Assembly (NCBI GenBank): GCA_042408215.1
Contig: JAYFMW010000018.1
Coordinates: 1-21,947 of the forward strand
Direction: 5' to 3'
Origin: Microcoleus sp.
Lineage (GTDB): Bacteria > Cyanobacteriota > Cyanobacteriia > Cyanobacteriales > Microcoleaceae
Length of the DNA stretch: 21,947 nucleotides
Shown here: piece after piece, positions 1 to 21,947 of the stretch
Numbering within the stretch: position 1 is the stretch's first letter
How the letters are laid out: each line of letters starts with the position of its first letter
Made by a program: the position numbers and the translations under genes
Notes under the pieces: model-generated
Seen by the model: only the letters and a program-made list of their open reading frames with translations
What the model was told of the DNA's origin: nothing
Database searches by the model: none

Positions 1-1
1 G

Positions 2-3000
2 ACTTTTAGCGATGCGGGGATTAAGAGTAGTTCGGGTAAGTCGGTGACTTTTGAGAGGGATGTTGATGGGAGGATTGTCGGTGTTGTTGACCCGGATGGC
101 AAGAAAGTCAAGTACGAATACGACGCGAAAGGGGATTTGGTTGCTGTTAAGGATAGGGAGAATAATGCAACTCGGTTTGAGTACGAAGATGAGGACAGAC
201 CGCACTTTTTGACTGAGGTTATCGACTCCTTGGGACGCAGTGGAGTTAAGACCGAGTACGATGAACAAGGTCGCCTCAAACAGATGGTTGATGCTAATGG
301 TTCGGCGGTGGAGTTGGTTTACGATCCGAATAATTCTATTCAGAAAGTTAAGGATGTTTTTGGCAAGGAAACTACTTACGTTTACGACAATCGCGGGAAC
401 GTTTTGACTGAAGTCGATCCGTTAGGAAAGCGGATTGACAGGACTTACGATCCGGATAATAATGTCTTGACTGAGACTGTAATTACCACTGAGTTGAATG
501 CTGCCGCCAATCCGGTTGAAGTGCGGCAAACTACTGAGTGGACTTATGACAGTCGGGGGAATAAGTTAACTGAAAAAGACCCGTTAGGGAATGTTTCGCG
601 GTGGACTTATAACAGTCGGGGACAGGTTTTGACTGAAACTGATGCGTTGGGGAATGCTGCGACTTATACTTATTCTCCTAGCGGGAATTTGCTGACGACC
701 TCTGATGCGGCTGGGAATGTTACTAAGTATAGTTATGATATGAGGGGAAATATTCTCACCCTTACCGATACAGCTAATAACATCACCCGCTTTCAGTACG
801 ATGGTGGAGGTAACGTCACCAACTTAGAAGACTCATCCGGTAACAAAGCCAGCTACACCTACGACAGCAACGGGAATATGCTGCGGGAAACAATGAAAGT
901 AGCAACTCCCACTGGAGAGAAAGAATTAGTAACAGAATGGACTTACAACAAAGAAGGAAAAATTAAGTCAATTACCCAATCTGGGCGCACTACAACTTAC
1001 GAATACGACAGCAATGGCCACCAAAGCGCCAGCATTGATGGAAATCGCCGTACCGAGTACCGCTACAACTCTCAAGGTAAATTAGTCGAAACCATTTATC
1101 CTGACGATACTCCTAACAACTCTGACAATTCCCGAACCATTACTGTTTACGATAAAGGCGGCCGTCAAAGGGCTACTATCGACAGTAACGGACGAGTTAC
1201 TCACTACAAATACGACGACGCGGGACGGCTAACTGAAACTATTTATCCAGGAGAAACACCCAATCAAGTACAGCAATTGCTGAACGCTATTTCTCCGGGT
1301 CAAACTCCTCAATCTGTTGACTGGACAAATATCGTTTATCCCGACACTACGCCTGCTTATTTAGCCAGCAATTCCCGTAATAAAACCGAATACTACAAGA
1401 ACGGGCAAGTTAAAGCAGAAATTGATGTTGATGGCAACCGTACCGAGTACGAATACGATGCAGCAAATCGCGTTACCCTCACTCGTTTTGATGCCAACAA
1501 TTACATCACCTATACCTACGATGCAGTTGGCAATAAAATTAGCGAAACTGTTTTTGCTGGAGGATTTTCGACAACTACTACTTACGATAGTAAAGGTCAG
1601 GTAACAGCAACGACAGACCCGAATGGCAAAACTACTCAATTTGAATACGACGCTGAAGGACAACTTAAAACTGTTGTCGATGCTTTGCTTCATCGTACTG
1701 AATACGCTTACGATAGTGCGGGCAATTTGACAAGTGTTAAGGATGCTTTGGGTCAGGTAACAACTTACGAATACGATGACAAAGGTCGCCGCAAGGCTGT
1801 AATTCGACCGGATAGCAAGCGTTCTACTTTTGTTTACGATGATGTGGCTAACGCTGTCACGATTACGGATTTTAATAACAAGACGGTTAAGTATACTTAC
1901 AACGACCAAAACCAAGTTGTTGCTAAGCAGTATCAGAATGTCAGCGGTGCAACTGTTAGCGTTACTTACGCTACAAATGGGTTGGAAGAAACTATTACTG
2001 ACAGTCGGGGTGCAACTGTTTATAAATACGACAGTTTGGGGCAGGTAATTTCTCGGAAAGACCCGGTTGGCCCTTATCTTGCTAGCGGGAATTCGATTGA
2101 ATATAAGTATGAATCCGGGCAAGTTAGTGAGGTTAAGACTCCGACTCGCACGACTGGCTATACCTATGATTCTGATGGACGTTTGAAGACGGTTAGTACG
2201 CCGGATATGGGGACGGTGACGTATGATTACGATTCTCTGGGGAATCTCTGGAAAACTTCGTATCCGAACAATTTAGTTGAGACTCGCATCTACGATAGTT
2301 TGGGTCGTTTGGATTTGGTGAAGACTGTTAAGGTTGACCCGGTGACGAAGCTGGAGTTGCAGGTTGTTTCTAGTTACGATTATGCGGTTGATGATGTTGG
2401 CAATCGCAGGGAGGTATTAGAAAATAGCGGTCGTAAGGTTGAGTACAAGTACGATGATTTGAATCGGTTGTTGGAGGAGAAGATTACTAATGACCCTAGT
2501 GGGAACAATCGGGTTGTTAGTTACACTTACGATGCTGTGGGGAATCGGTTGACGAAGACTGATTCTGTGAGTGGGGTAACGACTTATACTTACAACAATT
2601 TGAATCAGCTATCTACGTCTACAACTAATGGTGTTGCTACTATTTATTCTTACGATAGTAATGGGAATTTGATTTCGGAGGTGACTGGAAGCAATTCTAC
2701 TGTTTATCGGTGGGAGAATGATGGCGAGAATCGGTTGGTGGGGGTGACGGTTACTGAGGGTGGGGTTACTCGGAATGTTGGGTATCAATATAATGCTCAG
2801 GGGATGAGGGTTGGTAAGGTTGTTGATGGGGTGGAGACTCGGTATTTGATTGATGAGTTGCAGCCTTATTCTCAGGTTTTGGAGGAGTACGATGCTGCGG
2901 GGAATGCTAAGGGTTCTTATGTTTATGGGTACGATTTGATTGGTAAGTTGCAGGGGAATCAGCCGTCGTTTTATCACGTTGATGGGTTGGGTAGTACGAG

Positions 3001-3034
3001 GGTTGTTGACGAATGGTTTGGGGGCGGTTACTGA
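2..3034 (+). CDS. RHS/YD-repeat protein, module A barrel; 5' end lies outside the window, continues into 2940-3998 across a +1 frameshift at about 3002
   Basis: The frame is open from base 2 (TFSDAGIKSSSGKSVTFERD), so the GTG at 44 is not the true start. Dozens of YD repeats (e.g. TTYEYDSNG, YTYDAVGNRL). It ends in the RHS core motif FYHVDGLGSTR, after which similarity to modules B and C moves to the next frame. Confidence 0.95.
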   Translation, partial: TFSDAGIKSSSGKSVTFERDVDGRIVGVVDPDGKKVKYEYDAKGDLVAVKDRENNATRFEYEDEDRPHFLTEVIDSLGRSGVKTEYDEQGRLKQMVDANGSAVELVYDPNNSIQKVKDVFGKETTYVYDNRGNVLTEVDPLGKRIDRTYDPDNNVLTETVITTELNAAANPVEVRQTTEWTYDSRGNKLTEKDPLGNVSRWTYNSRGQVLTETDALGNAATYTYSPSGNLLTTSDAAGNVTKYSYDMRGNILTLTDTANNITRFQYDGGGNVTNLEDSSGNKASYTYDSNGNMLRETMKVATPTGEKELVTEWTYNKEGKIKSITQSGRTTTYEYDSNGHQSASIDGNRRTEYRYNSQGKLVETIYPDDTPNNSDNSRTITVYDKGGRQRATIDSNGRVTHYKYDDAGRLTETIYPGETPNQVQQLLNAISPGQTPQSVDWTNIVYPDTTPAYLASNSRNKTEYYKNGQVKAEIDVDGNRTEYEYDAANRVTLTRFDANNYITYTYDAVGNKISETVFAGGFSTTTTYDSKGQVTATTDPNGKTTQFEYDAEGQLKTVVDALLHRTEYAYDSAGNLTSVKDALGQVTTYEYDDKGRRKAVIRPDSKRSTFVYDDVANAVTITDFNNKTVKYTYNDQNQVVAKQYQNVSGATVSVTYATNGLEETITDSRGATVYKYDSLGQVISRKDPVGPYLASGNSIEYKYESGQVSEVKTPTRTTGYTYDSDGRLKTVSTPDMGTVTYDYDSLGNLWKTSYPNNLVETRIYDSLGRLDLVKTVKVDPVTKLELQVVSSYDYAVDDVGNRREVLENSGRKVEYKYDDLNRLLEEKITNDPSGNNRVVSYTYDAVGNRLTKTDSVSGVTTYTYNNLNQLSTSTTNGVATIYSYDSNGNLISEVTGSNSTVYRWENDGENRLVGVTVTEGGVTRNVGYQYNAQGMRVGKVVDGVETRYLIDELQPYSQVLEEYDAAGNAKGSYVYGYDLIGKLQGNQPSFYHVDGLGSTRVVDEWFGGGY

Positions 3035-3998
3035 TAGTTATTCTTATGATGCGTTTGGGAATTTAATTGTCTCGGCTGGTGGTTCTAATAATGCTTATTT
3101 GTTTGCTGGAGAGCAGCGGGATAGCGAGACTGGGTTGGATTATTTGCGGGCGCGGTATTATGACCCGTTGGTGGGGAGGTTTGTTTCGGCTGATGCTTAT
3201 GAGGGTACGCTGAATGACCCGATGAGTTTGCACGATTATCAGTATGCTCATGCTAATCCGGTTGTTAATACCGATCCTAGCGGGTATTTCTCAGTTGCTG
3301 AAATGCACGTTGCGGAATCGATTCGCAATATTTTAGCAGGAATACAAATTGATACGGGAATTTATCTCATTTCAGCTACTCATAACTATGCACAAGGAAA
3401 AGGTGATTACAAAATTGGTGACTTTTTGCTTGATCTATCATGGAACTCATTTTTTGCCTTAGCTCCCATGTTGGCTCCTTATTTGGTTTCAGGAGTACGT
3501 GGAATGATTCGGAGGTTAAAAAATGCGAATCATACTTCATTGGCTGGAACAGGTGGAGCTTGGAAAGGCATAAATGAAATCAGAGATCCTTCTGTGATCC
3601 AACAGCTTACAACCAACGCCTGCGGGCCTGCATGTGCTCAAATGATTCTCAGAGATCTTGGGGTAAACGTTTTTCAAAGCCAGGTAGCTGCGGAAATGGG
3701 CACGGTACTTTCACACCCCGAGATTCTTGCAATGGCACTCACCCGCTTGGACAACCCAGGTAGTCTTTGGCGTGGTGTAGGTGTAACAGAAGAATCAATT
3801 AATGGTTTAAACAACACGGGTTCATGGATAGCTATGATGAAGGGTAGTCGTGTCAATCATTGGATAATTGTTGACGGTTTTGACGGGAGTAAAAAAAATC
3901 TTCTAATACGAGATCCTTGGGAGGGTACAAAATATACTATAAGTTTCAAAAACTTTTTAAAATATTGGACTCAGTACGCAGTCTTCAAAGCTCAGTAA
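2940..3998 (+). CDS. C-terminal part of RHS module A: RHS-associated core, DPSG cleavage motif and C39-like papain-fold cysteine protease toxin
   Basis: YLFAGEQRDSETGLDYLRARYYDP...NPVVNTDPSGY core (D at 3273). The tip has QQLTTNACGPACAQMIL (Cys 3621), HWIIVDG (His 3858) and IRDPW (Asp 3912), the Q-C-H-D arrangement of C39-type peptidases. True homology starts near 3003. Confidence 0.88.
   Translation: MVSCRGISRRFITLMGWVVRGLLTNGLGAVTDSYSYDAFGNLIVSAGGSNNAYLFAGEQRDSETGLDYLRARYYDPLVGRFVSADAYEGTLNDPMSLHDYQYAHANPVVNTDPSGYFSVAEMHVAESIRNILAGIQIDTGIYLISATHNYAQGKGDYKIGDFLLDLSWNSFFALAPMLAPYLVSGVRGMIRRLKNANHTSLAGTGGAWKGINEIRDPSVIQQLTTNACGPACAQMILRDLGVNVFQSQVAAEMGTVLSHPEILAMALTRLDNPGSLWRGVGVTEESINGLNNTGSWIAMMKGSRVNHWIIVDGFDGSKKNLLIRDPWEGTKYTISFKNFLKYWTQYAVFKAQ
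3083..3292 (+). repeat. 210-bp RHS-core direct repeat, copy 1
   Basis: Ungapped match to 4297-4506 with 14 mismatches by manual count (about 93% identity), ending just after the DPSGYF codons. Confidence 0.95.
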
Positions 3999-4022
3999 TT
4001 CCTAGGATTTGGGAGAATTCAT

Positions 4023-4286
4023 ATGACAGTAAACATCACAATAATCGAGCTACAAAAAACTGAGAACACCAATGAATTTGAAATAGTATTATTAATTGAT
4101 AATAAAGAGCATCACTTTATTATTTATGTCTTTGATCGAGAAGGAATCTTAGGTTTATCTTTAAAAGATGAATTAACAAAAATACTTTGCCGTAATTCTG
4201 AAAAAAATAAATATTTTATCAGTCTCGTTTTAAATTTTTACCGAGGCAGTGATATAAAGCTACCAATTATTTTAGGAGAGTTTTGA
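4023..4286 (+). CDS. Small protein (87 aa), putative immunity protein for the C39-like protease toxin
   Basis: AT-rich ORF 24 bp after the toxin stop, with GGGAGA upstream of the ATG. Assignment is by position only; no family recognised. Confidence 0.7.
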   Translation: MTVNITIIELQKTENTNEFEIVLLIDNKEHHFIIYVFDREGILGLSLKDELTKILCRNSEKNKYFISLVLNFYRGSDIKLPIILGEF

Positions 4287-5536
4287 TACACGGCATTTCT
4301 AATAATCCTTATTTGTTTGCTGGCCAACAGCGGGATAGCGAGACTGGGTTGGATTATTTGCGGGCGAGGTATTATGACCCGACTCTGGGGAGGTTTGTTT
4401 CGGCTGATGCTTATGAGGGGACGCTGGATGACCCGATGAGTTTGCACGATTATCAGTACGCTCATGCTAATCCGGTTGTTAATACCGATCCTAGTGGGTA
4501 TTTTTCCATTGGAGAATTGTTGGGTACTCTGGCGGGGTATTCTGTGTTGGCTGGGTTAAGTTATACGACTGGGAGTGCTGTAGGAACAGTGGCTGGGGGA
4601 GGAAGCGCTTGGGATGCGGTTGCTAAGTACGATCAGTTTTTTGCTGGTTTAACAGATGCTTTGACCTTTGGAATTAGTTCGCATCTTCGGACATCAATAT
4701 ACGGAGAAACAGCTACAAGCAACCACAAGGGAATTTTCTTTAACTTGGGTCGGCTTGGTGGGGCGATCGCCAGTATGTGGATTGGTGCTAATGGAACCAC
4801 ATTTGCTGAATTCAGTACAGCTAGTTGGTTGCCGAGAGCTGCTTTGGGTTACGATTTATTTGGTGCTGGGCTTGGCATGGCTCAAAGTACAATTAATGTT
4901 GCCAAAGGTCAAGCTACTTGGTGGGATATTCTTCCTTTTTTACCGGCCCTTACTTGGTTTAATATTAAGTACAAGGTCAATATCAAGGGGTTGGGGAGTA
5001 ATTTTGGTAATCTTGAAATTAGCAGGAGATTGAGTGATGCTGTTGGAGACCTCCGAGAACAAACAGGAGTCCGCAGATATTTTAGTATATTGTCCCAGAA
5101 GTGGAGAGGTGGAACAGTAGGCGTAGCTGTAACTGACATACCAGGCTTAGAAAATAAGGTATTTGGAGGAGCATCAGGACGGGCACGCATAAAAAACACA
5201 CTTGCTCCGCTAGAAGGCGGTGATATTAAGCCACCCACATCAAATCAGATTAGTCAGGGTCATGCTGAACAAGATATGGCTAACCAACTTGATAAAGCTA
5301 TTCAATCAAGTAATTTAACGGAAGATGACTTAGTTGGAAGAACAGTATTTAGGCATCTTGAGGCTATGCCATGTGATACATGCCGATGGGGTCTGCTAAA
5401 GACCTCAACGGGAAATCCTGGTGTGCTAAGTACCTTCAGTTCTCGTTATCCACAACTTAGAATGATAGTGACTGCTGAAGGCATTGAAGAGTCTCTGAAA
5501 ATTCAAGGAGGAAAAATAGTTGAAGATTTTCAATAA
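4283..5536 (+). CDS. Orphan RHS C-terminal cassette with Zn-dependent cytidine-deaminase-fold toxin
   Basis: Begins with about 70 codons of RHS core nearly identical to module A, ending in NTDPSGYF. A Gly/Ala-rich hydrophobic region follows, then GHAEQD (HAE at 5261-5269) and MPCDTC (PCxxC at 5369-5383). The TTG start overlaps the upstream TGA. Confidence 0.9.
   Translation: MIHGISNNPYLFAGQQRDSETGLDYLRARYYDPTLGRFVSADAYEGTLDDPMSLHDYQYAHANPVVNTDPSGYFSIGELLGTLAGYSVLAGLSYTTGSAVGTVAGGGSAWDAVAKYDQFFAGLTDALTFGISSHLRTSIYGETATSNHKGIFFNLGRLGGAIASMWIGANGTTFAEFSTASWLPRAALGYDLFGAGLGMAQSTINVAKGQATWWDILPFLPALTWFNIKYKVNIKGLGSNFGNLEISRRLSDAVGDLREQTGVRRYFSILSQKWRGGTVGVAVTDIPGLENKVFGGASGRARIKNTLAPLEGGDIKPPTSNQISQGHAEQDMANQLDKAIQSSNLTEDDLVGRTVFRHLEAMPCDTCRWGLLKTSTGNPGVLSTFSSRYPQLRMIVTAEGIEESLKIQGGKIVEDFQ
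4297..4506 (+). repeat. 210-bp RHS-core direct repeat, copy 2 (homology arm of the deaminase cassette)
   Basis: Matches 3083-3292. Confidence 0.95.
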
Positions 5537-5603
5537 ATGGATTAAGGGATGGTACAATTAATGACATTATGGGCTAATTGTAATTCACAAACATAGGTAA
5601 TTC

Positions 5604-5984
5604 ATGATGAAAACAGAATTTTTTGCGAGTTGCTGTGAGGCTATTGAAACCAACTTGTATATTGGCTTTTCTGAAGCTGAAGGAGGGGAGCATTATTTTA
5701 TTATGACGAGATCTGAAGCATCTCAAGAAGAGGCTGTTCCTAACAGAAAAAATATCTACGCAGAGCTGGATGATGAAAATTGGACAGAAGATGCAGGTGT
5801 CGATTCGGTCATCCTTAGCCGTCATCAAATTATTATTCGTTTCGGTTCCGATACCGTAAGTCTTCCAGATCCAGACGAAATTATAATTACTTTTTCCTTA
5901 GAAGATGCTGACTTTGAGGGACTACGGAACGTCTTGCAGAAGATAATGCGAGGTTACGAAGACAGGTTGAAATTAATTGATTAG
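5604..5984 (+). CDS. Putative immunity protein, Imm10-like (paralog 1)
   Basis: Acidic 126-aa ORF after the deaminase. The pattern IGFS...YFIMTR...YAELDDE...GVDSVILSR...IIITF resembles the Imm10 family as recalled. Clearly paralogous to 6113-6508. Confidence 0.75.
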   Translation: MMKTEFFASCCEAIETNLYIGFSEAEGGEHYFIMTRSEASQEEAVPNRKNIYAELDDENWTEDAGVDSVILSRHQIIIRFGSDTVSLPDPDEIIITFSLEDADFEGLRNVLQKIMRGYEDRLKLID

Positions 5985-6051
5985 TCGATTAAAGCAACAT
6001 ACCAAGCATAAAATGCAAACAATACCACCCTACAAACACCCATGAAACCAA

Positions 6052-6082
6052 TTTGCCAATAAATCATTGAGCGATTGGCAAA
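6052..6082. repeat. 9-bp inverted repeat whose left part recurs as a 17-bp direct repeat at 6560-6576
   Basis: TTTGCCAAT-N13-ATTGGCAAA. TTTGCCAATAAATCATT is exact at 6052-6068 and 6560-6576. Confidence 0.7.
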
Positions 6083-6112
6083 CAAAAAAATCCCAAAGCA
6101 TGGATTAAATTT

Positions 6113-6508
6113 ATGATGGTGTTTGAACTTTGTGCAAAACTTGTGGGAATCGAAGAAGAGTTATTTTATATTGGTTTTTCTTCAGGGGAGGATAACGAAC
6201 ATTATTTTGTTATGCAAAGACATGAATTTCATAAAGAAGATGCTCTTCCCAACGTAGGGAGTGTTTACTGGGAGATAGACGATGAGGGTTGGGGAGAATA
6301 TGGAGGAATTAAAGAAGTTACTTTAAAGCGCGAGCGATTAATTGTTCATTTCGATCCTTCAAGACCCAACCCTCATATAGATTACGATGAGGCAAGAATT
6401 GTTTTTTCTGTAAATGATTCAGAATTTCAGAAGTTACAGAACACCTTGCAGAAGAAGATAATGCTCGGTTATGAGGATAAGTTGAATTTAATTGTTGAAG
6501 ATAATTGA
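6113..6508 (+). CDS. Putative immunity protein, Imm10-like (paralog 2)
   Basis: Shares YIGFS, EHYF(I/V)MxR, PN, YxE(L/I)DDExW and LQ-KIMxGYED(R/K)LxLI with 5604-5984. Confidence 0.75.
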   Translation: MMVFELCAKLVGIEEELFYIGFSSGEDNEHYFVMQRHEFHKEDALPNVGSVYWEIDDEGWGEYGGIKEVTLKRERLIVHFDPSRPNPHIDYDEARIVFSVNDSEFQKLQNTLQKKIMLGYEDKLNLIVEDN

Positions 6509-6600
6509 CTAATAATGACTTGGCAAATGAGAAATTACCGAAGTGCTGGGAAATTCTGTTTTGCCAATAAATCATTCAGGATGAGGAGCTTATCATCTCT

Positions 6601-9406
6601 CAATTGCAACCGGGATGGACTCAAACGAATCCAACCAACCCCATTTATCAAGAAGTAACAGTCACCGCCAACAATACGAAAGTTTGGAGTAGATTTTGCA
6701 GCCACAAATTCCAAACTAGCAGGCCCCAATATTGACCCCGAATTTACCAGTACCCCGCCAACAACAGTCAAAGCAGGAGAAAGATTAGTTTACAGGACAT
6801 CTGCAACTGACTTAAACGACGACGACTTAACCTTTGAATTGGTACTGGCACCCAAAGGCATGGCAGTAGCCCCCAACGGTACCATATCTTGGCGTCCCCC
6901 ACTCAATGCAGTCGGAACCCACGATATCATTGTCAGAGTCAATGACGGCAGAGGCGGCACGGATTTGCAGTCATTCAAAATCGAAGTTACCCCCGGAAAC
7001 AACGCCCCCGTTTTCACTTCCCAACTGCCAGAAAACACCAATCCCGCTGTCAACCAACCATTCCAATATCAAGCAAAAGCTGTAGATTTAGACGGAGACA
7101 CAATTACCTACTCCATAATTCCCAATTCCAGCAAACCTGTCACCCCCACCAACGCCACAATCAACCCCACAACCGGAGTAATTAATTGGACTCCCACAAC
7201 CGCACAGCAAGGAGGCGCATTTAATTGGGTTTACGCAGGCGTTGTCGAACCTTGGGAAATCTTAATTAAAGCAACAGACAACAAAGGCGGAGAAGCATTC
7301 CAAAGAATCGAATTAACCGTCAGCCCAGCCGCCCCCAATCGCCCGCCATCCATTACCTCAACTCCCCGCACAAATACTCGTTTGGGCAAGACTTATTTCT
7401 ATCAAGTAGCAGCCAAAGACCCAGACGGCAACCCCTTAACATATACTCTATTAAATCCGCCCGACGGCATGGCATTCGCAACGCCAGCTACGACACCCGC
7501 CGGCATGACATTTCAAGAAGGACTTATCAGTTGGACACCCGGAGTCTCCCAGCAGGGAACTTATCCCATTACCGTCAGAATTAGCGACAGTTTAGGAGGA
7601 ATTGCCACTCAAACCTTTAACTTAACAGCCGATAACATCGCTTCAAATCGCCAGCCCAGCATCGATTCTACTCCCGCAGAACAAATTACCAATCTAGCCA
7701 AGCTTTATCAATACAATTTGGCTGGCAGCGATGCAGATGGAGACAGATTGCTGTGGAGTTTGGACAAAGCGCCTTCGGGGATGATTGTTGACCCCCAATC
7801 TGGTTCTTTACGCTGGCAGCCTAGCGCAGAACAAATTGGCGAACATACCATTTCTGTAAGGACAATTGACGGCAACGGCGGTTATGCAGTCCAAGAATTT
7901 ACGCTGGCTGTCAGGGGAATAAACACGCCGCCGACTGTGGTTTCAACTCCTCCATCGAAGGCAGCAGTAAATCAGGTTTACGCTTATACAGTTGTCGCGA
8001 CTGATACCGAAAATGACCCGCTGACTTTCAGTTTGAGTAAGTATCCAGTCGGGATGGCAATTGATAGCAACGGCAAGATTCAATGGACTCCCAATGCCAA
8101 TCAAATCGGACAGCATTCTGTAGAAGTTGCCGTGACTGATAAGCAGGGGGCAATTGCAACTCAAACTTTCACTGTCAATGCCGGAACTACTGCTATAAAT
8201 CAGCCGCCTGCCATCACTTCCACACCTGTATTTACTGCAACAATTAACCGCCCTTATACATATCAGGTACAAGCCACCGATACCGACGGTACTATCTCGC
8301 AATATCAGTTGCTGCAATCCCCCACCGGCATGACAATTAACCCGGCAACTGGTGTTGTTACTTGGAACAATCCGACTGCTGGAAACCATCAAGTAGTAGT
8401 CGGGGCGGTTGACAATTCGGGTACGGGTGCGGCCCAAGGATTTGAGTTAATTGCCAGGGCTAATTCAGCAGCGGTTGTGCCAACTATCCCGATTCAATCT
8501 GTTTCGCCCGGTGCAAGTTATCGCTACGATTTGAAGGCGACTGATGCGAAGGTCGATTTGTTGACTTTTGCTTTAATTCAATCTCCCAGCGGCATGACAG
8601 TTGATGAATTCGGGCGGATTAGTTGGAAGCCGAATGCGGATAATATCGGCAATCATCCGGTTTCTGTTAAGGTGACTGATACTTTTGGAGAAAGCGTTAC
8701 TGTTTCTTACAATTTAAGCGTTGTCGCCGATACTGTCGCCCCTAAAGTCAACCTAATTGCTAGCAATAATACCGCTAATCTTGGTGATTCCGTCACCTTC
8801 ACCGTTAATGCTGTCGATAACGTGAAAGTCGAGTCTTTAGGCTTAACTATCAACGGCACTCCTGTTGCTATAGATGCACAAGGAAGAGCAACTGTCAAGT
8901 TAAATAACTTAACTCCCATCACGGCAATTGCCACTGCTAAAGATGCGGCCGGAAATGTGGGGAATGCGACTCAAGTTGTCAGGGCGATTGACACTACTGA
9001 TGTCAATGCGCCAATTATCAATATCAGTTTAGCGGATGATGTTGATGTTTCTGCACCTCTGGTAATTCGAGGTACGATAACTGACAGCAATTTGGATTAC
9101 TATACTTTGTCAGTAGCCCCGGTTGGTAGCAGTCAATTTAAGGAAGTTTATCGGGGAACGACTGCTGTCACTAACGGAACGATTGCTACCTTTGACCCGA
9201 CTGTTTTAGCTAACGGCGCTTACACTCTAAAATTCACTGCATTCGACGCTAACGGTAACGGTTCGACTACTGAAAGGACGGTGAATGTTGCGGGTGATTT
9301 GAAGTTGGGCAATTTCCGGTTATCCTTTACTGATTTATCGGTTCCAGTGGCGGGAATTCCGATTAATGTGACTCGGACTTACGATTCTTTGAATGCCAAT
9401 CAATAG
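6601..9406 (+). CDS. 5'-truncated N-terminal part of RHS module B: end of an SdrD-B-like domain, 7 cadherin-like/putative Ig repeats, 2 further Ig-like domains, start of the RHS N-terminal domain
   Basis: From 6601 the frame reads QLQPGWTQTNPTNPIYQEVTVTANNTK, with an in-frame TAA at 6568 and no ATG. A +1 shift at about 6680 gives FGVDFAATNSKLAGPNIDPEFTSTP, which runs into the listed 6839-9406 ORF. Repeats start DPEFTSTP, NAPVFTS, NRPPSITSTP, NRQPSIDSTP, NTPPTVVSTP, NQPPAITSTP and NSAAVVPTIP, with DxDGD and GxIxWTP-type motifs. It ends with FTDLSVPVAGIPINVTRTYDS. Confidence 0.88.
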
Positions 9407-10480
9407 CGATGATTTCGGCTACGGCTGGCGGATGGAATTCCGGGATACCGATTTGAAGACTTCGCTGAAAGCTGATCCGACTTATGAGGAGTTGGGGATA
9501 AATACGGTACCGTTTGATAGCAAGACTAAGGTGTTTATTACGCTTCCGGGTGGTAAGCGGGAAACGTTTACTTTTAAGCCGACTCCGCATCATCTGAATC
9601 AGTATTTGGGAGGGGCTGGGCCGGGTGCTCAGATGTTCAAGCCGGCTTTTGAGTCGCATTCGGGTTCGACGATGACTCTGACGGTTAAGGATGCGAATTT
9701 GGTCAGGAATGAGAACGGGTATTATGGGGTGAACGCACAGCCCTTCAATCCTGAAAATCCTGCCTTTGGTGGGGTGTATGTGTTGACTACGAAGGAGGGA
9801 TTAATTTACGAGATTGATGCTAAAACTGGGGATTTGTTGACTGCTACTGATGCGAATGGGAATAAGTTGACTTTTAGCGATGCGGGGATTAAGAGTTCGA
9901 CAGGTAAGTCGGTGACTTTTGAGAGGGATGTGGTGGGAAGGATTGTCAGTGTTGTTGACCCGGATGGGAAGAAGGTTAAGTATGAATACGATGCGAAAGG
10001 GGATTTAGTTGCTGTTAAGGATAGGGAGAATAATACGACTAGCTTTAAGTACGAAGCTGCGAATAATCCTCACTTTTTGACTGAGGTTGTTGATGCGTTG
10101 GGAAGGAGTGGGGTGAAGACTGGGTATGATGATTCTGGTCGTTTAAAGCAGATGATTGATGGGAATGGGGAAAAGGTGGAGTTGGTTTATGACTCGGCTA
10201 ATTCGATTCAGAAGGTTAAGGATGTTTTTGGGAAGGAAACGACTTATGTTTATGACTTGCGGGGGAACGTTCTCACTGAGATTGACCCGTTAGGGAAGCG
10301 GATTGACAGGACTTTTGATGGGGATAATAATGTTCTGAGTTCTACCGTGGTTACCAGAGAGTTGAATGCTGCTGGAGTTTCGGTTGAGGTGAAGTCGAAG
10401 ACTGAGTGGACTTACGACAGTCAGGGGAATAAGTTATCTGAAAAAGATGCTTTGGGGAACGTGACTCGATGGACTTATAA
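8936..10480 (+). repeat. About 1.5-kb direct repeat shared by modules B and C (also shared with module A from 9869)
   Basis: Colinear with 17486-about 19030 at an offset of about 8550. The stretch 9869-10480 is also colinear with 1-about 610. Confidence 0.92.
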
Positions 10481-14153: not shown

Positions 14154-14188
14154 AGCTTGATGTATTGTATAAGCATCTTTTTGGTCGG

Positions 14189-14225
14189 AATTATAACTTT
14201 TGTGCAGTCCAACAAAGTTATAATT
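14189..14225. promoter_or_regulatory. Perfect 12-bp inverted repeat between toxin and immunity gene (operator, terminator or RNA-processing hairpin)
   Basis: AATTATAACTTT-N13-AAAGTTATAATT followed by TTT. The right arm contains TATAAT (14219-14224). Function not determined. Confidence 0.5.
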
Positions 14226-14282
14226 TTTCAATGGAATTTATTAAACAACGTTAATCTTTACTTCAACACAAGGAGTTTTTAA

Positions 14283-15206
14283 ATGGGAACTTTAATTGAA
14301 GCTTTGGAAAGAATTATGAACTGGCTAAGGAAGCATCAGCCAGACTATGCTGCTTCCTTTCTGCCTGGACTTAAATCTGAAGAAATTCAGGCAGCGGAAG
14401 CAAAAGTGGGATTTAAACTGCCCCCAGAAATTTATGAACTTTACCAGTGGAGAAATGGAACAGAAGAAGATGCTAAGGCGGTATGCTTTCCCACCATGCA
14501 GTTCTTGCCTCTTTTTACAGCTGTGGAGTGTAGTCAAGGATGGAATGGATACATTTTAGAAGAAAAAAAAATTATAGAGGATAGTAAATGGTATGAAACA
14601 AGTCCTTTGTTTATATTTCTTCAAAACAATTGTGACTTCTGTGGTGTTCCTATTGTTGACTATCAAATAGAAAAATCACCAGTAGTTGTTCTTGGTGAAG
14701 GATATTTGCCATATATTTTTTATACAAGTCTCACTGACATGATGTTAACGCTAGCAGAATGCTACGAAACAAACGCATACTACTTAGCTAAAGATGGATA
14801 TATTGAAGAAGAGGAGTGTAAAGCTGCTGTGGTTTTACGCAAATACAATAGCGAGCTTAATGAAAAAGCGCTTTCAGATTTTCAATCTATTTTGTCACAG
14901 CCACTATATTTTTCAACACGAGACTATTCAAGCAGTTTAGTTAGACCAGTTATTGAAGCCACAACTGTTATGGGTAGATTTAAAGATCCAAGAAGTGTCG
15001 ATTTGTTATTGGAAGCTTTACAGGTTTGGGGTAAAGTTAAAGGTTTAAGTAGAGATGGAGTTTGTTCTTGGGTAATAAAGGCTTTAGGTGAAATGTGTGA
15101 CGTTAGGGCGTTGCAACCGCTGACTAATGCTTTGCAAGATGATTCTCCGTTTGTTAGGAAAGAAGCTCAAGAAGCTTTGTTAAAGTTTAGATATAATATG
15201 GGTTAA
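14283..15206 (+). CDS. SMI1/KNR4 (SUKH) immunity protein with C-terminal HEAT-like repeats
   Basis: PGLKSEEIQAAEAKVGFKLPPEIYELYQWRNG is a SUKH N-terminus. The C-terminus ALGEMCDVRALQPLTNALQDDSPFVRKEAQEAL is HEAT/PBS-lyase-like. AAGGAG RBS at 14270-14275. Confidence 0.9.
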   Translation: MGTLIEALERIMNWLRKHQPDYAASFLPGLKSEEIQAAEAKVGFKLPPEIYELYQWRNGTEEDAKAVCFPTMQFLPLFTAVECSQGWNGYILEEKKIIEDSKWYETSPLFIFLQNNCDFCGVPIVDYQIEKSPVVVLGEGYLPYIFYTSLTDMMLTLAECYETNAYYLAKDGYIEEEECKAAVVLRKYNSELNEKALSDFQSILSQPLYFSTRDYSSSLVRPVIEATTVMGRFKDPRSVDLLLEALQVWGKVKGLSRDGVCSWVIKALGEMCDVRALQPLTNALQDDSPFVRKEAQEALLKFRYNMG

Positions 15207-15213
15207 ACCTAGC

Positions 15214-15937
15214 ATGGCTCCTACTGGGCTGTTTTTACAGGACAGTGGCGCTGCTATTAATATCTCCTCAATTTTGAGTACCTTTCAATACCTGTCACCT
15301 TACCTGGGAGCCGCCGGAGCAGGACTTGTTTTTTCAAGCGGGAGTTCTCCATTGCCACCGACAGCATCAGTAGCTTATCAGGTAAATTTGGCTGTCAGTA
15401 AATCAACAATTAGAGAATGCTATTTAACAGGAAATCAAGATTGTGAAGCGGGTATTCCAATAGTCTTTTATGGACAAACATTCCAGGGGCAATCTTTACA
15501 AAAGACTACTGAACACATACAAAATGCTCTGCAAGCTGGATTACCATCGCTTCTCAGTGCGTGGGGCAACTGTCCCCGCCGATCACGGCACAAGAAAGTG
15601 GTACAAAAATAAACCCCCGTGCAACCAACCTGCAAAAGGAAGATATGTAGAAGCAGCGAAAAGTCAAGGCATAATAATTCGTAAGGAGAATGTAACGTGT
15701 GATGAATATCCTTTTTATGGAAGCGAACAGGGTGGACGAAAAAGTTATGATGGAGGATTCGTGTCGCTTCGATTAGTTCCTGAACCAGAGGCTGGACTAC
15801 AGGGTAGACTAATGGATGACGATCATCTACGAGAAGCTGGCGTTGTCAAAGGAGACGTCTTCAAGAAGTGGTATGGTGTTGTTTCAATACCCGAACTACC
15901 TAGTTCATTTTGGCGCAATCGTAACATAAATAGTTGA
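15214..15937 (+). pseudogene. Orphan NucA/NucB-family DNase toxin tip split by a +1 frameshift at about 15559 (ORFs 15214-15612 and 15470-15937)
   Basis: Starts MAPTGLF, a remnant of the DPTGL cleavage motif. Contains IPIVFYG, LQKTTEHIQNAL and CDEYPFYGSEQGG. Removing G15559 gives LLSRGATVPADHGTRKWY, matching LLSRVDPSTNPRRWY of the module B toxin. It may be an intact gene if the insertion is a read error. Confidence 0.85.
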
Positions 15938-15960
15938 TTTAGCTAAGGATTCCATAAAAT

Positions 15961-16602
15961 ATGTCTATACTCACACAAACTATGGAAAAAATTGTTGATT
16001 GGCTGCGAGTTAATGACCCTGAATCAATTGCTGAGTTACGCCCGGGTTTGACCGACCAAGAAATTGAAAAAATAACTCAAAATCTTCCCTTGTTTTTTCA
16101 TACTACAAATTTGACCGAGCAAGAAATTGAACAATCTCTTCCCTTAATTCTTCCGTGGGAAGTACGAGAAATTTACCACTACTGCAATGGAGAGATTGCG
16201 CTAACACCTTCTTTATTTTTAGAACCCTTGGAGAAAGCTATTGAAAACACTTGCTATGGCGAATGGATGAGAGGAAACAAGATTTCTTCTTCTAGCCATA
16301 TACTTCCTCTTTTTCATGGAGACGGGAAAAATTTCTATTATGTCATTTGCGATTCAGCAAACAAATCTCCAGTTTGGTGCGTATATGTCGGAGAAGCTCC
16401 TAGAATGTATGCTGCTAGTTTAACTAGCTTAATATTAAGCACTTGGGAATGTTATGAAACGGGGGTTTATTATATGTATTTTGATGAAGAATCTGGTTGT
16501 TCTTATGTAGAGGACGATGACAATTCAGAAAAAGCTGAGGAAATTTTCCAAAAGTACAATCCCGAACAGATGAATGATTGGAGATATTTTAACAGAGATT
16601 GA
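15961..16602 (+). CDS. SMI1/KNR4 (SUKH) immunity protein
   Basis: LRPGLTDQEIE...LPWEVREIYHYCNG. C-terminal SLTSLILSTWECYETGVYY is shared with the other two SUKH genes. Confidence 0.88.
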   Translation: MSILTQTMEKIVDWLRVNDPESIAELRPGLTDQEIEKITQNLPLFFHTTNLTEQEIEQSLPLILPWEVREIYHYCNGEIALTPSLFLEPLEKAIENTCYGEWMRGNKISSSSHILPLFHGDGKNFYYVICDSANKSPVWCVYVGEAPRMYAASLTSLILSTWECYETGVYYMYFDEESGCSYVEDDDNSEKAEEIFQKYNPEQMNDWRYFNRD

Positions 16603-16607
16603 GAAAA

Positions 16608-16736
16608 GGAAAGCTAATGAGAGAGATTTACAGAGAAGCAAATGTCCGTCTTGCGGATTCGTTTGGTGTTATAACCCTCCCCAATCAACGGATTAATTCG
16701 TATTGGATCGATCGAAATGGCGTAATTGGTAGATGA
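16608..16736 (+). pseudogene. Remnant (last 42 codons) of a third NucA/NucB-type toxin tip
   Basis: Manual translation GKLMREIYREANVRLADSFGVITLPNQRINSYWIDRNGVIGR* aligns with the tails GRLMDDDHLREAGV...YGVVSIPELPSSFWRNRN and GLRLEAFYRRAFV...FWVDRGG. Not in the ORF track. Confidence 0.8.
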
Positions 16737-16788
16737 CGATAACCCTGAATTTTATTTGATTCTTTGAGCTGGCCAAGGATGTAAAATC

Positions 16789-17436
16789 ATGGAACAATTA
16801 ACAAATGCTTTGAAACGCATTTTAAAGTGGATAAAAACAAATGATTCACACAGAGCTTCTATCTGGCAGACCGGACTAAGTTTATCAGAGATTGAAGAAA
16901 GGGTGAAAGTATTACCATTTTGTTTACCCCAAGAAGTTTATGAACTTTACAAATGGAGGAACGGTTTTATACCGGGGACACGAGGATGGATGCAAGGTTT
17001 TGGAGGGCATGATTTTTATAACTTAGATTTTGTCATCAAAAACTATTTCAATCAGATTGAATACTGTAAAACATGCGCTGTCCTTGATAATAATCCTTCT
17101 TCTGAACCCCTCAGAAACCCACAATGGTTTTCTCTGTTAGGTCATGATAAGCGAGATTATTTTGTCATTGGCGAACAAGAACAAAAACAAGAATCTCCCG
17201 TGTTTTGCTTTGACTATGGAGATTGGGATGATTTTAGACCCAAGTTAAAATATAGCAGCCTTACTTCTATGATGCTAACCATTGCCGAGTGCTATGAAAC
17301 AGGTGCTTACTATCACTACAAGGTGGAAGGACGAGAGATAACAAGTTTCGGAATGAATTACCCAGCAGCAGAATCCATCCGCAAAAAATACAACCCCGAC
17401 TGTGAGTACGACGCTCCTATAGAAGAACTCCTCTAG
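16789..17436 (+). CDS. SMI1/KNR4 (SUKH) immunity protein
   Basis: TGLSLSEIEERVKVLPFCLPQEVYELYKWRNG and SLTSMMLTIAECYETGAYY. Paralog of 14283-15206 and 15961-16602. Confidence 0.9.
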   Translation: MEQLTNALKRILKWIKTNDSHRASIWQTGLSLSEIEERVKVLPFCLPQEVYELYKWRNGFIPGTRGWMQGFGGHDFYNLDFVIKNYFNQIEYCKTCAVLDNNPSSEPLRNPQWFSLLGHDKRDYFVIGEQEQKQESPVFCFDYGDWDDFRPKLKYSSLTSMMLTIAECYETGAYYHYKVEGREITSFGMNYPAAESIRKKYNPDCEYDAPIEELL

Positions 17437-17485
17437 AAAAGAAATAAGGCGAGTAATTATTAAACAACCTTAATTTTTTTCTCTA

Positions 17486-19190
17486 GCTAAAGATGCGGCT
17501 GGAAATGCCGGAACCGCAACTCAAACAGTAGCAGCAATTGACCCCACCGATGTCAACGCACCAATTATTAATATCAATTTAGAAGATGATGTTGATGTTT
17601 CTGCACCTCTGGTAATTCGAGGTACGATAACCGATAGCAATTTGGATTACTATACTTTGTCAGTAGCCCCGGTTGGTAGCAGTCAATTTAAGGAAGTTTA
17701 TCGGGGAACTACTGCTGTCACTAACGGCACGATTGCTACCTTCGACCCGACTGTTTTGGCTAACGGCGCTTACGTTCTCAAATTCACTGCTTTCGACGCT
17801 AACGGTAACGGTTCGACCACTGAAAGGACGGTGAATGTTGCGGGTGATTTAAAGTTGGGCAATTTCCGGTTATCCTTTACTGATTTATCGGTTCCAGTTG
17901 CGGGAATTCCGATTAATGTAACTCGAACTTACGATTCTTTGAATGCGAATTCTAGCGATGATTTTGGCTACGGCTGGCGGATGGAATTCCGGGATACTGA
18001 TTTGAAGACTTCGTTAAAAGCTGACCCGACTTACGAGGAGTTGGGGATTAATACCGTAGCATTTGATAGCAAGACTAAGGTATTCATCACCCTACCCGGT
18101 GGTAAGCGGGAAACATTTACATTCAAGCCACAATCGCATCATCTGAATCAGTATTTAGGGGCGGCTGGGCCGGGGGCTGCGATATATAAGCCGGCTTTTG
18201 AGTCTCAAAAGGGTTCGACGGTGACTCTGACGGTTAAGGATGCGAATTTGATACGGAATGAGTACGGCGAGTATTACGGGGTGAACGCACAGCCTTTCAA
18301 TCCTGAAAATCCTGCCTTTGGTGGGGTGTACGTGTTGACTACTAAGGAGGGATTGGTTTACGAGATTGATGCGAAGTCTGGGGATTTGTTGACTGCTACT
18401 GATGCGAATGGGAATAAGTTGACTTTTAGCGATGCGGGGATTGCTAGTTCTAGCGGTAAGTCGGTGACTTTTGAGAGGGATGTTGCTGGAAGGATTGTCG
18501 GTGTTGTTGACCCGGATGGGAAGAAGGTTAAGTACGAATACGATGGGAAGGGGGATTTGGTTGCTGTTAAGGATAGGGAGAATAATGCAACTCGGTTTGA
18601 GTACGGAGATGAGGACAGACCGCACTTTTTGACTGAGGTTATCGATTCGTTGGGACGCAGTGGAGTTAAGACTGAGTATGACGAATCCGGTCGTTTGAAG
18701 CAGATGGTGGATGCGAATGGTTCGGCGGTGGAGTTGGTTTACGATGCCTCTAATTCGCTTCAGAAGGTTAAGGATGTTTTTGGTAAGGAAACGACTTATG
18801 TTTATGACAGTCGCGGGAATGTTTTAACTGAGATTGACCCGTTAGGGAAGAGGGTTGATAGGACTTTTGATGCGGATAATAACGTTCTGACTGAGACTGT
18901 AATTACCACTGAGTTAAATGCTGCTGGGACTTCTGTTGAGGTGAGGTCGAAGACTGAGTGGACTTATGATGCGAAGGGGAATAAGTTAACTGAAAAAGAC
19001 CCGTTGGGTAATGTTTCGCGGTGGACTTATAACAGTCGGGGACAGGTTTTGACTGAAACTGATGCGTTGGGGAATGCTGCGACTTATACTTATTCTCCTA
19101 GCGGGAATTTGCTGACGACCTCTGATGCGGCTGGGAATGTTACTAAGTTCAGCTACGATATGAGGGGAAATCTTCTTACTCTTATCGATG
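17486..19190 (+). repeat. Module C copy of the conserved Ig/RHS N-terminal block
   Basis: 17486-19030 matches 8936-10480. 18421-19190 matches 1-770, including about 138 identical nt (591-728 = 19011-19148). Confidence 0.92.
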
Positions 19191-21947
19191 CTGCGAACAA
19201 AGTTACTAAGTTTACCTACGATGGTTCGGGAAATGTACTCTCGGTTGAGGATGCTTTAGGAAGTAAAACAACTTTCACCTACGACAACAGTGGGAATCGT
19301 TTAACTGAAACTCGCACTGTAACTACTTCTTTAGGTATTCAGCAACTGGTTACTAAATCAACTTACGACAGTAACGGTAAAGTTAAGTCAACGACTGATG
19401 GATTAAATGGAGTTACTAAATACGAGTACGATGCTAATGGGAATCAAGTTGCTGTAATTGATGTTTTGAATCGTCGCACTGAGTATCGTTACGATAATAA
19501 AGGTCAGTTAATTGAGACGATTTATCCTGACAATACTCTCAGCAATCCGGCTGACAATCCGAGAACGATTAATCTGTACGATAAGGGCGGCCGTTTGCGG
19601 GCTAGTGTTGACTCAGACAAGTTGGTAACTCATTACAATTATGACGATGCTGGGCGGTTGATTGAAACGATTTATGCCGATAAAACTGATACTTTGTCTC
19701 AATTAGTTACTGTTCTTGCACCAAATCAAACACTTGCTACAATTGATTGGACTGCTGTTGTTTATCCCGATGAAACGCCTGCTTTCTTATCGAACAATCC
19801 CCGCAGCTTAACTGAATATTACAAAAATGGTGATGTCAAAGCTGAGATTGACGAGTTAGGAAATCGCACTGAGTATCGGTATAATGATAACGGTCAATTG
19901 GTGGAGGTTATTTATGCTGATGATACGCCTGATAATTCTGATAATCCCAGAAGTCGCACTGAGTACGATAAGTTAGGACGGACTGTTGCTAGTATTGATG
20001 CGTTGGGAAGGGTGACTCGTTACGAGTACGATAGTTTAGGTCGGTTGGTGAAGACTGTTTATCCCGATGCTACTCCTAACAACCTTTTAGACAATCCGAC
20101 TTCCAAGACTGAATATGATAGTTTGGGTCGCCGCATTTCTACTACTGATTCGGCTGGGAAAACAGTCAAGTACGAGTACGATGCTTTAGGTAGATTGACT
20201 GCTGTCGTGCAGACTTTGAATCAAGCTGGAACCAATCCAATTAATCTCAGAACCGAGTACGGTTACGATGAAGCTGGAAGGTTGATTTGGCAAGAGGATG
20301 CTTCTGATAATCGGACTGAGTTTGAGTACGATAAAAACGGTCGTCGCGTTGCGGTTGAGTTACCGTTAAATCAAAGGTCGAGTACGACTTATGATGAGGT
20401 GGGGAATGTTAAGACTGTTACTGATTTTAATGGTAATAAGATTACCTACACTTACGATGCCGAAAATCGGTTGTCAAGCAAGCAGTTTGCGCCCGGTAGC
20501 GGCGAATCTCCGGTAACGTTTACTTACACCGCTGGCGGGCAAATTCAAACCGTTGTTGATGGACGGGGAACGACGAATTTTCAATACGATGAACTGGGAC
20601 GGTTGGTATCGAGACAAGACCCGGATGGCCCTTATTTGGCAAGCAATGTAACGATTGAATACGATTACGATGCTGCGGAAAATCGAACACAAGTGAGGAC
20701 TCCGAGTGGTGCAACTAAATACGAGTACGACGCACAAAATCGTTTGGAAAAAGTTATCGACCCGGATTTGGCAGAAACGAAGTATTTCTACGATGCTGAG
20801 GGGAATTTGTCGAGGACTGAGTTGCCGAATGGTGTGGAGGAAGTGAGGACTTACGATGAGTTGAATCGGTTGAAGTTGTTAGCTTATCAAAGGAATAACG
20901 TAACGATTCAGAGTTTTGATTATACTCTCGATCCTGTGGGGCATCGCAAGGTTGTTACGGAACAAAACGGCAGGAAAGTTGAGTACGAATATGACGATTT
21001 GTATCGACTGACCAAAGAGACAATTACCGATTCGGTTAATGGCAACCGCACGATTAGTTACGGTTACGATGCGGTGGGGAATCGGTTGACGAAGACTGAT
21101 TCTGTTACTGGAGTGACGAGTTATGTTTATGACGATAATGACAGGTTGTTGAGGGAGGAATTGCGGCAGAATAATGTGTTGGTTAAGACGACTGAGTATC
21201 GTTACGATGCGAATGGGAATACTACTCGCAAGATTGAGAACGGTACTCAAGAGACGGTTTATACTTGGAATCTTGAGAATCGTTTGATTGGCGTTCAAAC
21301 TCCGACGGGCGAGAATATTAGTTATGCTTACGATGCGGATGGGGTGAGGGTTAGCAAGACGGTTAATGGGGTGACTACTGAGTATTTGGTTGATAAGAAT
21401 CTTCCTTACGCTCAGGTGTTAGAGGAATCTGTTAATGATGCTTTGATCGCTAGTTACGTCTATGGATTGGATTTGATTAGTCAGGAGAGGGGGAATGCTG
21501 ATTCGTATTATTTGGTTGATGGGTTGGGCAGTACGAGGGGGTTGACTGATGCTAGTGGGGTTGTCACTGATACTTACAGTTATGATGCGTTTGGCAATTT
21601 AATTGCATCTGCTGGTGCTACTACTAATAATTATCTGTTTGCTGGAGAGCAGTTAGATCCGAATTTAGGGGATTATTATCTGAGACAGCGTTATTACAAT
21701 CCTGGTGTAGGGCGGTTTACTCGGCGGGATACTTATGAGGGTAGCCTTTCCAATCCAATATCGCTGCACAAGTATGTTTATGGTAATAGCAACCCTGTTA
21801 ACTACATCGATCCAACAGGGCTTTTTGGTATGTCTTTGCAAGAGCTTAACGTTACCCAGGCTCTAGCTGATGCCTTGGCAGTTAGTGTAGGTGTTTATGG
21901 TCTTGTAACAAGTTCTTATAGACCAGAGCCTCTTGGAGGTTTTGGGG
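17486..21947 (+). CDS. RHS module C: 5'-truncated Ig-like/RHS YD-repeat protein running off the window end; toxin tip mostly outside the window
   Basis: Missing from the ORF track because no stop codon is reached. From 17486 it reads AKDAAGNAGTATQTVAAIDPTDVNAPIININ, colinear with 8936 onward. In-frame TAA at 17471 and no start codon at the junction. The same frame holds at the core, NPVNYIDPTGLF (D at 21809). Confidence 0.93.

Follow-up and report, generated by a model that had tools for sequence, protein, structure and literature searches.

Jackson 2009 (PMC2935791), in the sections on displacement that we draw upon, derives the enterobacterial rhs arrays from C-terminal displacement, in which the position of the crossover decides how long the displaced piece of core is. 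Orphan cdiA-CT/cdiI and rhs-CT/rhsI (C-terminal toxin/immunity) modules that are re-expressed by recombination are the subject of the portions of Poole 2011 (PMC3150448) and Koskiniemi 2014 (PMC3967940) used here, and the passages of Zhang 2012 (PMC3482391) that deal with cyanobacteria hold such polymorphic toxin systems to be relatively rare there. Here we analyze an array of this general kind in a cyanobacterium. The DNA in question, called the window below, is the whole 21,947 bp contig C18 of a Microcoleus sp. genome (G000; 7.36 Mb in 30 contigs, with a completeness rating of 99.98%), and it carries one RHS gene end (gene A) and five headless downstream pieces with immunity-type genes after each. 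All six toxin ends are on the + strand, a shared orientation that a preliminary description made from the nucleotide sequence had noticed, and every long open reading frame (ORF) is on that strand too. The features of the window are as follows:

2..3034, +, gene A: RHS barrel (Pfam RHS_repeat 4.2e-123), its 5' part lost at the contig start
2940..3998, +, continuation of gene A in the next frame: pre-cleavage core, NTDPSGYF motif and C39-like papain-fold tip
3083..3305, +, left 223-nt direct repeat (pre-cleavage core), from a repeat search and blastn; its partner is 4297-4519
4023..4286, +, presumed immunity gene of the A tip, an 87-aa ORF assigned by position only
4253..5536, +, orphan 1: 68-70 codons of core, a cleavage-type motif and a deaminase-like tip
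5604..5984, +, predicted cognate immunity gene of orphan 1, Imm10-like, sharing 45% identity with the 6113 gene and having an ortholog after the attached tip in genome G013
6113..6508, +, toxin-less predicted immunity gene of the Imm10 family (Pfam 6.4e-07, 30 bits against a cut-off of 28.6)
6590..14153, +, module B: SdrD_B-like tail, immunoglobulin-like (Ig) stalk, DUF6531, RHS barrel, DPTGL at 13440 and NucA/NucB-like tip
8936..10480, +, left 1.55-kb direct repeat (last Ig domain, DUF6531, first RHS repeats), 87.4% identical to 17486-19032
14283..15206, +, SUKH-1 plus HEAT predicted immunity gene of the B tip (SMI1_KNR4 8.4e-09; HEAT_2 8.3e-10)
15214..15937, +, orphan 3: ATG at 15214 at the motif (MAPTGLF; PTGLF at 15220), NucA/NucB-like tip
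15961..16602, +, SUKH-type predicted immunity gene (SMI1_KNR4 20.8 bits, below cut-off; 29-31% identical to the other two SUKH genes)
16593..16736, +, remnant: last ~45 codons of a NucA/NucB-like tip, from an alignment in which W, A, V and G columns are common to 4/4 sequences
16789..17436, +, SUKH-1 predicted immunity gene (SMI1_KNR4 1.5e-05, 26.1 bits, above cut-off), the final gene of the inserted block
17486..21947, +, module C: right 1.55-kb repeat (17486-19032), DUF6531, RHS barrel and DPTGL at 21809

The window resembles the arrays of Jackson 2009, as the consulted sections portray them, in having dissociated tips downstream in the same orientation, same-clade core fragments of variable length, a tip whose state, attached or displaced, differs between genomes, and an immunity gene that travels along. 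Core direct repeats surround the newer tip at two scales: the 223-nt repeats at 3083-3305 and 4297-4519 (91% identity, spacing 1,214 nt) enclose the A tip and the 4023 ORF, and the 1.55-kb repeats at 8936-10480 and 17486-19032 (87% identity) are spaced 8,550 nt apart, a unit made up of the B barrel, its tip, three immunity genes, orphan 3 and the remnant. Such repeats on both sides of a unit are the footprint expected of single-crossover integration of a core-bearing block. We consider it likely that this is an Ig-stalk RHS toxin array into which blocks have been integrated by homologous recombination at two conserved zones, displacing the 3' parts of resident genes as headless modules that keep their immunity genes.

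The five headless starts (4297, 6601, 15220, 16608 and 17486) and their differing depths are borne out by homology mapping and by placement on a 2,890-aa full-length paralog used as reference. Gene A begins at residue 1535 of this reference, which is simply the contig end; the core homology of orphan 1 begins at 4292-4304 (residue 2602); that of module B at ~6590-6601, in the tail of the SdrD_B-like region near residue 470 and ~2,280 codons ahead of its DPTGL motif; and module C begins inside an Ig domain at residue 1216. The varied depth, which the preliminary description had pointed out, is already predicted by the displacement model as published, since that model has core fragments of variable length.

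States that lack the insertions are found in other Microcoleus genomes. In G013 (contig C584) an intact 6,583-aa ORF has a barrel 91.3% identical to window positions 1-3297 and an attached tip 83.8% identical to orphan 1, with an ortholog of the 5604 immunity gene after it. In G032 (6 contigs) an A-type barrel bears a tip that matches the first part of orphan 1 (91%), and the ortholog of the toxin-less 6113 gene sits directly after this attached tip. Contig C3 of G032 also repeats the junction between the Imm10 gene and module B, including 497 nt of left flank that are 95% identical, and past this junction it has a single uninterrupted 2,416-codon ORF which, by sliding identity, is B-like to ~8900 and C-like from ~10480, with the duplicated zone in between. 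A paralog in the window's own genome, C19b, likewise has a B stalk and a C barrel; module C is 83.5-87% identical to the barrels behind the B-type stalks of G032 and C19b, and the 8,550-nt block is absent from both. Because the G032 ORF and C19b both join a B stalk to a C barrel, B and C are read here as the halves of one older module that was split by insertion of the 8.55-kb block, and not as the separate library entries for which they had been taken. This event would have moved a shell with its tip and trailing orphans as one piece.

That a barrel plus its toxin is the exchangeable unit, as had been proposed, holds for the 8,550-nt block, which was moved whole, but smaller exchanges occur as well. 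In the window, G013 and G032 the A-type barrel bears a different tip each time, and homology among paralogs often ends exactly at the motif, which means that tips are also exchanged alone; the comparisons thus indicate two recombination zones and two unit sizes. Sequence is shared most widely in the deeper zone, which runs from the last Ig domain into the first RHS repeats (7-12 paralog matches per 300-nt tile). The B barrel at 10600-13400 finds, in 78 other species genomes of the genus, only short matches of at most 73% identity, which fits an imported block. The barrel, tip and immunity gene of module B each have a distant counterpart in the first gene on contig C30 and its surroundings (60%, 32% and 31% amino acid identity), which suggests that the three have long been linked. 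A comparison with related strains had been recommended; other species gave the attached orphan 1 of G013 and the unsplit B/C module of G032, and re-use of a stored module was not observed.

How would such a layout arise? Following the published model, an incoming block with a homologous core would recombine in through a circular or equivalent single-crossover intermediate, and the former 3' part of the gene would be shifted downstream, headless and with its immunity gene kept. Each headless piece does begin 0-90 nt past the stop codon of an immunity gene. The alternative that full-length tandem genes simply lost their 5' parts, with no displacement by an incoming block, has two observations in its favor: contig C30 has full-length tandem genes, each behind a gene for a 245-aa accessory protein, and the truncation points of B-type stalks in four genomes (window/G032, G003 and G088; L074, L075, L077; window 6530-6600) fall no more than ~70 nt apart, with three different left flanks adjoining them. 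These clustered cuts may mark a preferred breakpoint or a cassette boundary. Against duplication and deletion stand the direct repeats at both scales, the uninserted states in G013 and G032, and a B barrel block with no close relative in the 78 other species genomes, and we regard that origin as quite unlikely.

Is the window, then, a library that can be drawn upon, or a graveyard in which headless pieces only decay, are never reused, and selection keeps the immunity genes alone? Four frame breaks, each a single extra base, are present: one in gene A, two in module B and one in orphan 3. The extra base of gene A (~3008) is absent from 10/10 comparators; it is found in contigs of three of the four independent sequencing runs, and in those three no contig that covers the site lacks it. 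The extra bases of module B, which split it over three frames (6571-6735, 6659-9406 and 9393-14153), are absent from 3/3 (~6680) and 15/15 (~9401) comparators and from all depth in 4/4 runs; at both places, two of the three aligned break sites (the orphan 3 site is unaligned), the extra base resembles the two alleles of a polymorphic site set side by side, a possible consensus error. The orphan 3 break lies within 15464-15612, as deduced from the two frames it is read in and from other runs, in which three near-identical records are each 1 nt shorter across 15321-15667. Frame changes across the RHS arrays of the window, C19, C30 and C7 are +1 in 11/14 cases, and the breaks in module B and orphan 3 may be consensus artefacts of mixed paralog or strain reads.

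Decay is favored by the distribution of breaks in the genome as a whole, 0 in 47.5 kb of the four long head-bearing ORFs versus 13 in ~51 kb of headless modules, by the persistence of the A break in most runs, and by the state of the orthologous G032 array, whose head is 5'-truncated and broken by a 1.18-kb insert. Gene A, the attached gene, is itself out of frame, and the giant-type gene C19a has one in-frame stop. The 1.18-kb insert (G032 C3:54205-55384, with a 302-aa ORF) recurs 20 kb downstream at 73759-74938 (88.6%) and has no copy in the window's genome.

Against mere decay, orthologous headless B-type modules are intact ORFs in G032 (2,416 codons) and G003 (2,421 codons), and the ratio of nonsynonymous to synonymous divergence (dN/dS) is low: 0.16 (850 codons), 0.15 (861) and 0.13 (888) for headless stalks and 0.18 for module C against G032 (1,474 codons). 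These headless values (0.13-0.18, at dS 0.29-0.59) are not above the 0.20 of gene A against the attached G013 barrel (1,000 codons). Module B further contains patches (7651-7950, 8401-9150 and 9451-9900) that are 98-100% identical to three different paralogs, one of which belongs to a giant head-linked gene, so sequence flows between headless and head-linked copies. The headless modules would be silent, with the immunity genes as the selected and expressed part, and gene conversion with expressed paralogs could keep the silent modules protein-like and able to donate sequence. The evidence for library versus graveyard is mixed, and actual use as a library is a possibility; that the pieces are nothing except decaying relics seems unlikely to us.

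Could modules B and C instead be independent genes, that is, shorter RHS proteins with their own starts that are separately expressed and not truncated at all? Long ORFs and low dN/dS would be expected of such genes, orphan 3 has its own ATG at the motif, and an in-frame TTG stands at 6604 behind GAGGAG. That TTG is TTA in G032 and in native copies, however, and the native stalk continues upstream of the B boundary in five of eight other species and in C19b; module C starts in the middle of an Ig domain right behind an immunity gene, and relative to full-length genes B is short of 470 residues and C of 1,215 residues at the N-terminus. A promoter scan of 3900-21947 found 35 sites where 33.3 are expected, and 10 terminator-like sites where 13.8 are expected. 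We judge independent genes very unlikely. In the window HIP1 (GCGATCGC) occurs at 2 sites, with 0 in the recombination zones.

The possibility of misassembly, which the preliminary description had itself raised, was followed up with contigs of other public sequencing runs. Junctions 4297, 6590, 15214, 16600 and 17486 are each spanned by such contigs (four runs), and one independent contig covers 12326-17557 with a single letter changed; the independent contigs reach only 10238-17614 plus the small junctions, and none crosses the 1.55-kb repeats. The small junctions were thus upheld and the long repeats left uncrossed. A chimera, in which C18 would join paralogous loci that lie apart in the cell, could draw on the location of both contig ends in repeats, on stretches of 300-750 nt that are 98-100% identical to other contigs, and on the three frame breaks that may be consensus errors. 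A further point for a chimera would be a contig of run X3 that connects 8977 to 17528, skipping 8,550 nt; it may be the uninserted allele, is explained equally well by a C19b-like paralog, and was discarded as evidence. Apart from the bridged junctions, the same Imm10/B junction in G032 and the passage of contig C30 through eight such modules without an N speak against a chimera, and we give it only a very slight chance.

The final 120 nt of C18 are unique within the assembly and so lead to no downstream neighbor. At its other end, a fragment on contig C7 (236413-237513), with the last Ig domain, DUF6531 and the first RHS repeats, stops at the module coordinate where C18 starts; it has 31 nt in common with window 1-33 (97%), after which the two diverge, and this is probably a branch point of the assembly graph.

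Several observations weigh against integration at two zones as the whole account. No core repeat flanks orphan 3 or the remnant, and for these two another origin is needed, for example deletion or illegitimate joining. Tandem full genes with deletions could give the same layout. No circle, transcript or re-attachment event was seen. The phasing of B stalk with B barrel, and of repeat with C barrel, is backed by this assembly only. The stretch 6300-7900 differs by 1.6-3.4% from the contigs of the other runs while the neighboring stretches are identical, and either recent conversion or the blending of a consensus may have shaped the window stalk. Finally, the low dN/dS could come from gene conversion alone.

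The upstream flank, in which it had been suggested that the parent gene be sought, is missing, as the window is the whole contig; synteny provides a substitute. The G032 array is bounded on one side by dnaB (95% identical to C15:65782-67858 of the window's genome) and on the other by a flank 95-98% identical to C30:77734 onward. At the end of contig C15 lies a giant head gene, of which the first 1,318 codons are present; its start is GTG behind AGGAG. From this synteny, gene A is probably the 3' end of a giant (~6,600-7,000 aa) head gene beside dnaB on C15, the link being unassembled. The giant head gene start together with 1.4 kb upstream is present in three copies of 99.5-99.95% identity at contig ends (giant-head-start copies are located at C30:1-5668, C13:82414-88081, C15:73274-78668 and C19:123181-124311), and several breaks in the assembly are due to this near-identity. 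TnpB (IS605 OrfB) genes lie immediately upstream of the giant-head start on C13 and C15.

Four further arrays or parts of arrays are present in the genome, on contigs C30, C19 and C7. That at C30:1443-77733 (L009-L012) is a ~76-kb array of eight RHS modules that is headed by a single 7,069-codon ORF with a 4,088-aa extension in front, holds three more full-length genes, and terminates in an accessory gene and a 15-codon stub of the next head. The complete C30 genes are 2,691-3,158 aa long and run from an Ig-like N-terminus through VWA, SdrD_B, about eight Ig domains and DUF6531 to the RHS barrel and tip. Over the whole genome, pre-cleavage core ends number 16 and DUF6531 starts 13, versus only 4 VWA-type N-termini (and 5 accessory genes), and headless pieces are therefore the rule and not a peculiarity of C18. 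Behind two of the C30 tips (53898-55347 and 66174-66719) are short ORFs that, judged by eye, have a Hint/intein-type pre-toxin look.

The accessory protein (L010:10214-10951; L022-L060) has no Pfam or NCBIfam family and carries the Atlas label 'putative TIGR04255 family'. Its structural model (mean predicted local distance difference test score 84.5) gave only weak TBP-like and AdoMetDC-like matches with template modelling scores of ~0.3, from which no function was read. It recurs in Microcoleus, Tychonema, Nostoc, Microseira, Trichormus, Geminocystis and others, and its gene is often at the far end of RHS arrays or before very large ORFs. Its close relatives from Microcoleus and Tychonema place the host among the mat cyanobacteria of the Oscillatoriales, and together with the domain matches they support the reading of the window as a cyanobacterial array of Ig-stalked RHS polymorphic toxins, as originally suggested.

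The number of RHS stretches (PF05593) is 17-21 in each of A, B and C; Pfam scores are 1.7e-62 for He_PIG and 2.6e-141 for RHS_repeat in module B, and 2.5e-143 for RHS_repeat and 4e-07 for DUF6531 in module C, whose toxin is stopped by the contig end 40 codons after DPTGL. The gene A barrel shares 90-91% identity with C30:24313-27588, with C30:72459-75743 and with the giant gene of G013. Its tip matches Peptidase_C39 (Pfam 3.4e-10) and the CdiA-CT structures 12aj and 8ssm (E ~1e-30). In gene A and orphan 1 the cleavage-type motif, from which cleavage is presumed, is a DPSGY variant. The orphan 1 tip has an HAE...PCxxC motif read from the sequence, the deaminase lead coming from the Atlas, and the NucA/NucB match of the B tip is weak (19.2 bits against a cut-off of 23.8); sequence searches of the PDB with the orphan 1 and B tips found no match.

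Immunity is predicted for the small ORFs, four of six of which have Imm10 or SUKH-1 (SMI1_KNR4) family matches. The 87-aa ORF at 4023..4286 has no Pfam or NCBIfam family and no second copy in the genome. NCBIfam searches with 11 queries gave no family for tips, small ORFs or the accessory protein, and their sole match was a far sub-threshold SdrD match on the N-terminal part of a head. Two stand-alone Imm10-like genes, C5:220674-221062 and C17:609201-609600, lie far from the RHS arrays and are 72% and 89% identical in amino acid sequence to the window's two copies. Orthologs of 13400-17480 were sought in the 78 other genomes of the genus, which yielded only one piece in G017 and matches of less than 65 nt in 8 other genomes. 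The G017 piece (C2:135949-136988, L062) is a 99% identical stand-alone copy of the 15961-16602 gene beside a glycosyltransferase-like ORF; it has a degenerate fragment of the 16789 gene at its side, and the toxin is absent.

By what route could such proteins be delivered? The lack of PAAR, VgrG and TpsB that had been noticed holds up: Pfam finds none of these domains in the window ORFs or the full-length paralogs, and the 99.98%-complete genome has 0 matches to PF05488 (PAAR) and 0 to PF05943 (sheath of type VI secretion systems, T6SS). Two ShlB-type genes, on C17 and C3, are away from the arrays. The hallmarks of CdiA/CdiB (a TpsB neighbor, FHA repeats and the VENN pre-toxin) and the SpvB and TcdB-mid domains of Tc toxins likewise have no Pfam matches in the window or full-length paralogs, apart from a weak sub-cut-off TEN_YD-shell match. 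Read by eye, the giant and standard heads show no hydrophobic N-terminal stretch. Delivery by the stalk alone is a guess.

Among other systems, the window is like the T6SS-linked Rhs effectors (PAAR-Rhs and VgrG-loaded) in its DUF6531 plug, YD-repeat cocoon and DPxGL autocleavage motif, and unlike them in that PAAR, VgrG and sheath genes are absent from the window and genome. It differs from contact-dependent growth inhibition (CDI) two-partner systems in having no adjacent TpsB, FHA or VENN, although the A tip does resemble CdiA-CT toxins. WapA of Bacillus subtilis, a Sec-exported wall-associated Rhs protein, serves as a stalked RHS system for comparison. With stalked RHS toxins, as outlined in the relevant parts of Zhang 2012 (PMC3482391), the window shares an N-terminal stalk that is long and repetitive, an RHS shell, a toxin that varies at the C-terminal end, and immunity genes and cassettes located downstream; relative to that outline it differs in heads of 2,700-7,070 aa with VWA, SdrD_B and He_PIG/Big_9 Ig domains, in the family-less 245-aa accessory gene, and in the lack, by eye, of an N-terminal hydrophobic signal. 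Like the orphan CDI and Rhs modules in the portions of PMC3150448 and PMC3967940 cited above, it has presumably silent toxin/immunity pairs behind a main gene with homology that allows recombination, but its modules are far larger than those, no TpsB partner is beside the array, and no re-attachment has been seen.

What is already established, as far as these partial sources go, is the displaced-tip array with variable core, the orphan toxin/immunity module and the stalked RHS toxin without a T6SS. Compared with the arrays in the consulted sections of Jackson 2009, the displaced fragments here are 1,441 and ~2,280 codons long and include the whole barrel and Ig stalk, a second and deeper crossover zone exists where stalk and DUF6531 meet, one inserted block forms a small array of its own, and the host has no T6SS. 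Whole-shell plus stalk displacement, the second crossover zone, the array within a block, the giant heads and the headless 2,400-codon ORFs found across species are new, and our literature search found no paper describing such RHS arrays in Microcoleus or other filamentous cyanobacteria.

Rhs displacement, described for short enterobacterial tips, would thus also move whole delivery shells with their trailing orphans, and would do so in a lineage without a T6SS in which polymorphic toxins are held, in the passages of Zhang 2012 noted above, to be relatively rare. A two-tier switching system, in which tip swaps are combined with a selection-visible headless reserve of open reading frames docked onto ~7,000-residue heads through a dedicated 1.5-2.3-kb Ig/DUF6531 zone, and in which export proceeds without a T6SS, TpsB or a signal peptide that can be recognised, is a tentative idea that we think possible although doubtful. 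The outcome is a concrete and testable pair of recombination zones. Benthic Microcoleus mats offer a natural system for kin discrimination in filamentous cyanobacteria and for the export of 7,000-residue RHS proteins, and they also suit the question of what maintains silent modules, selection or gene conversion.

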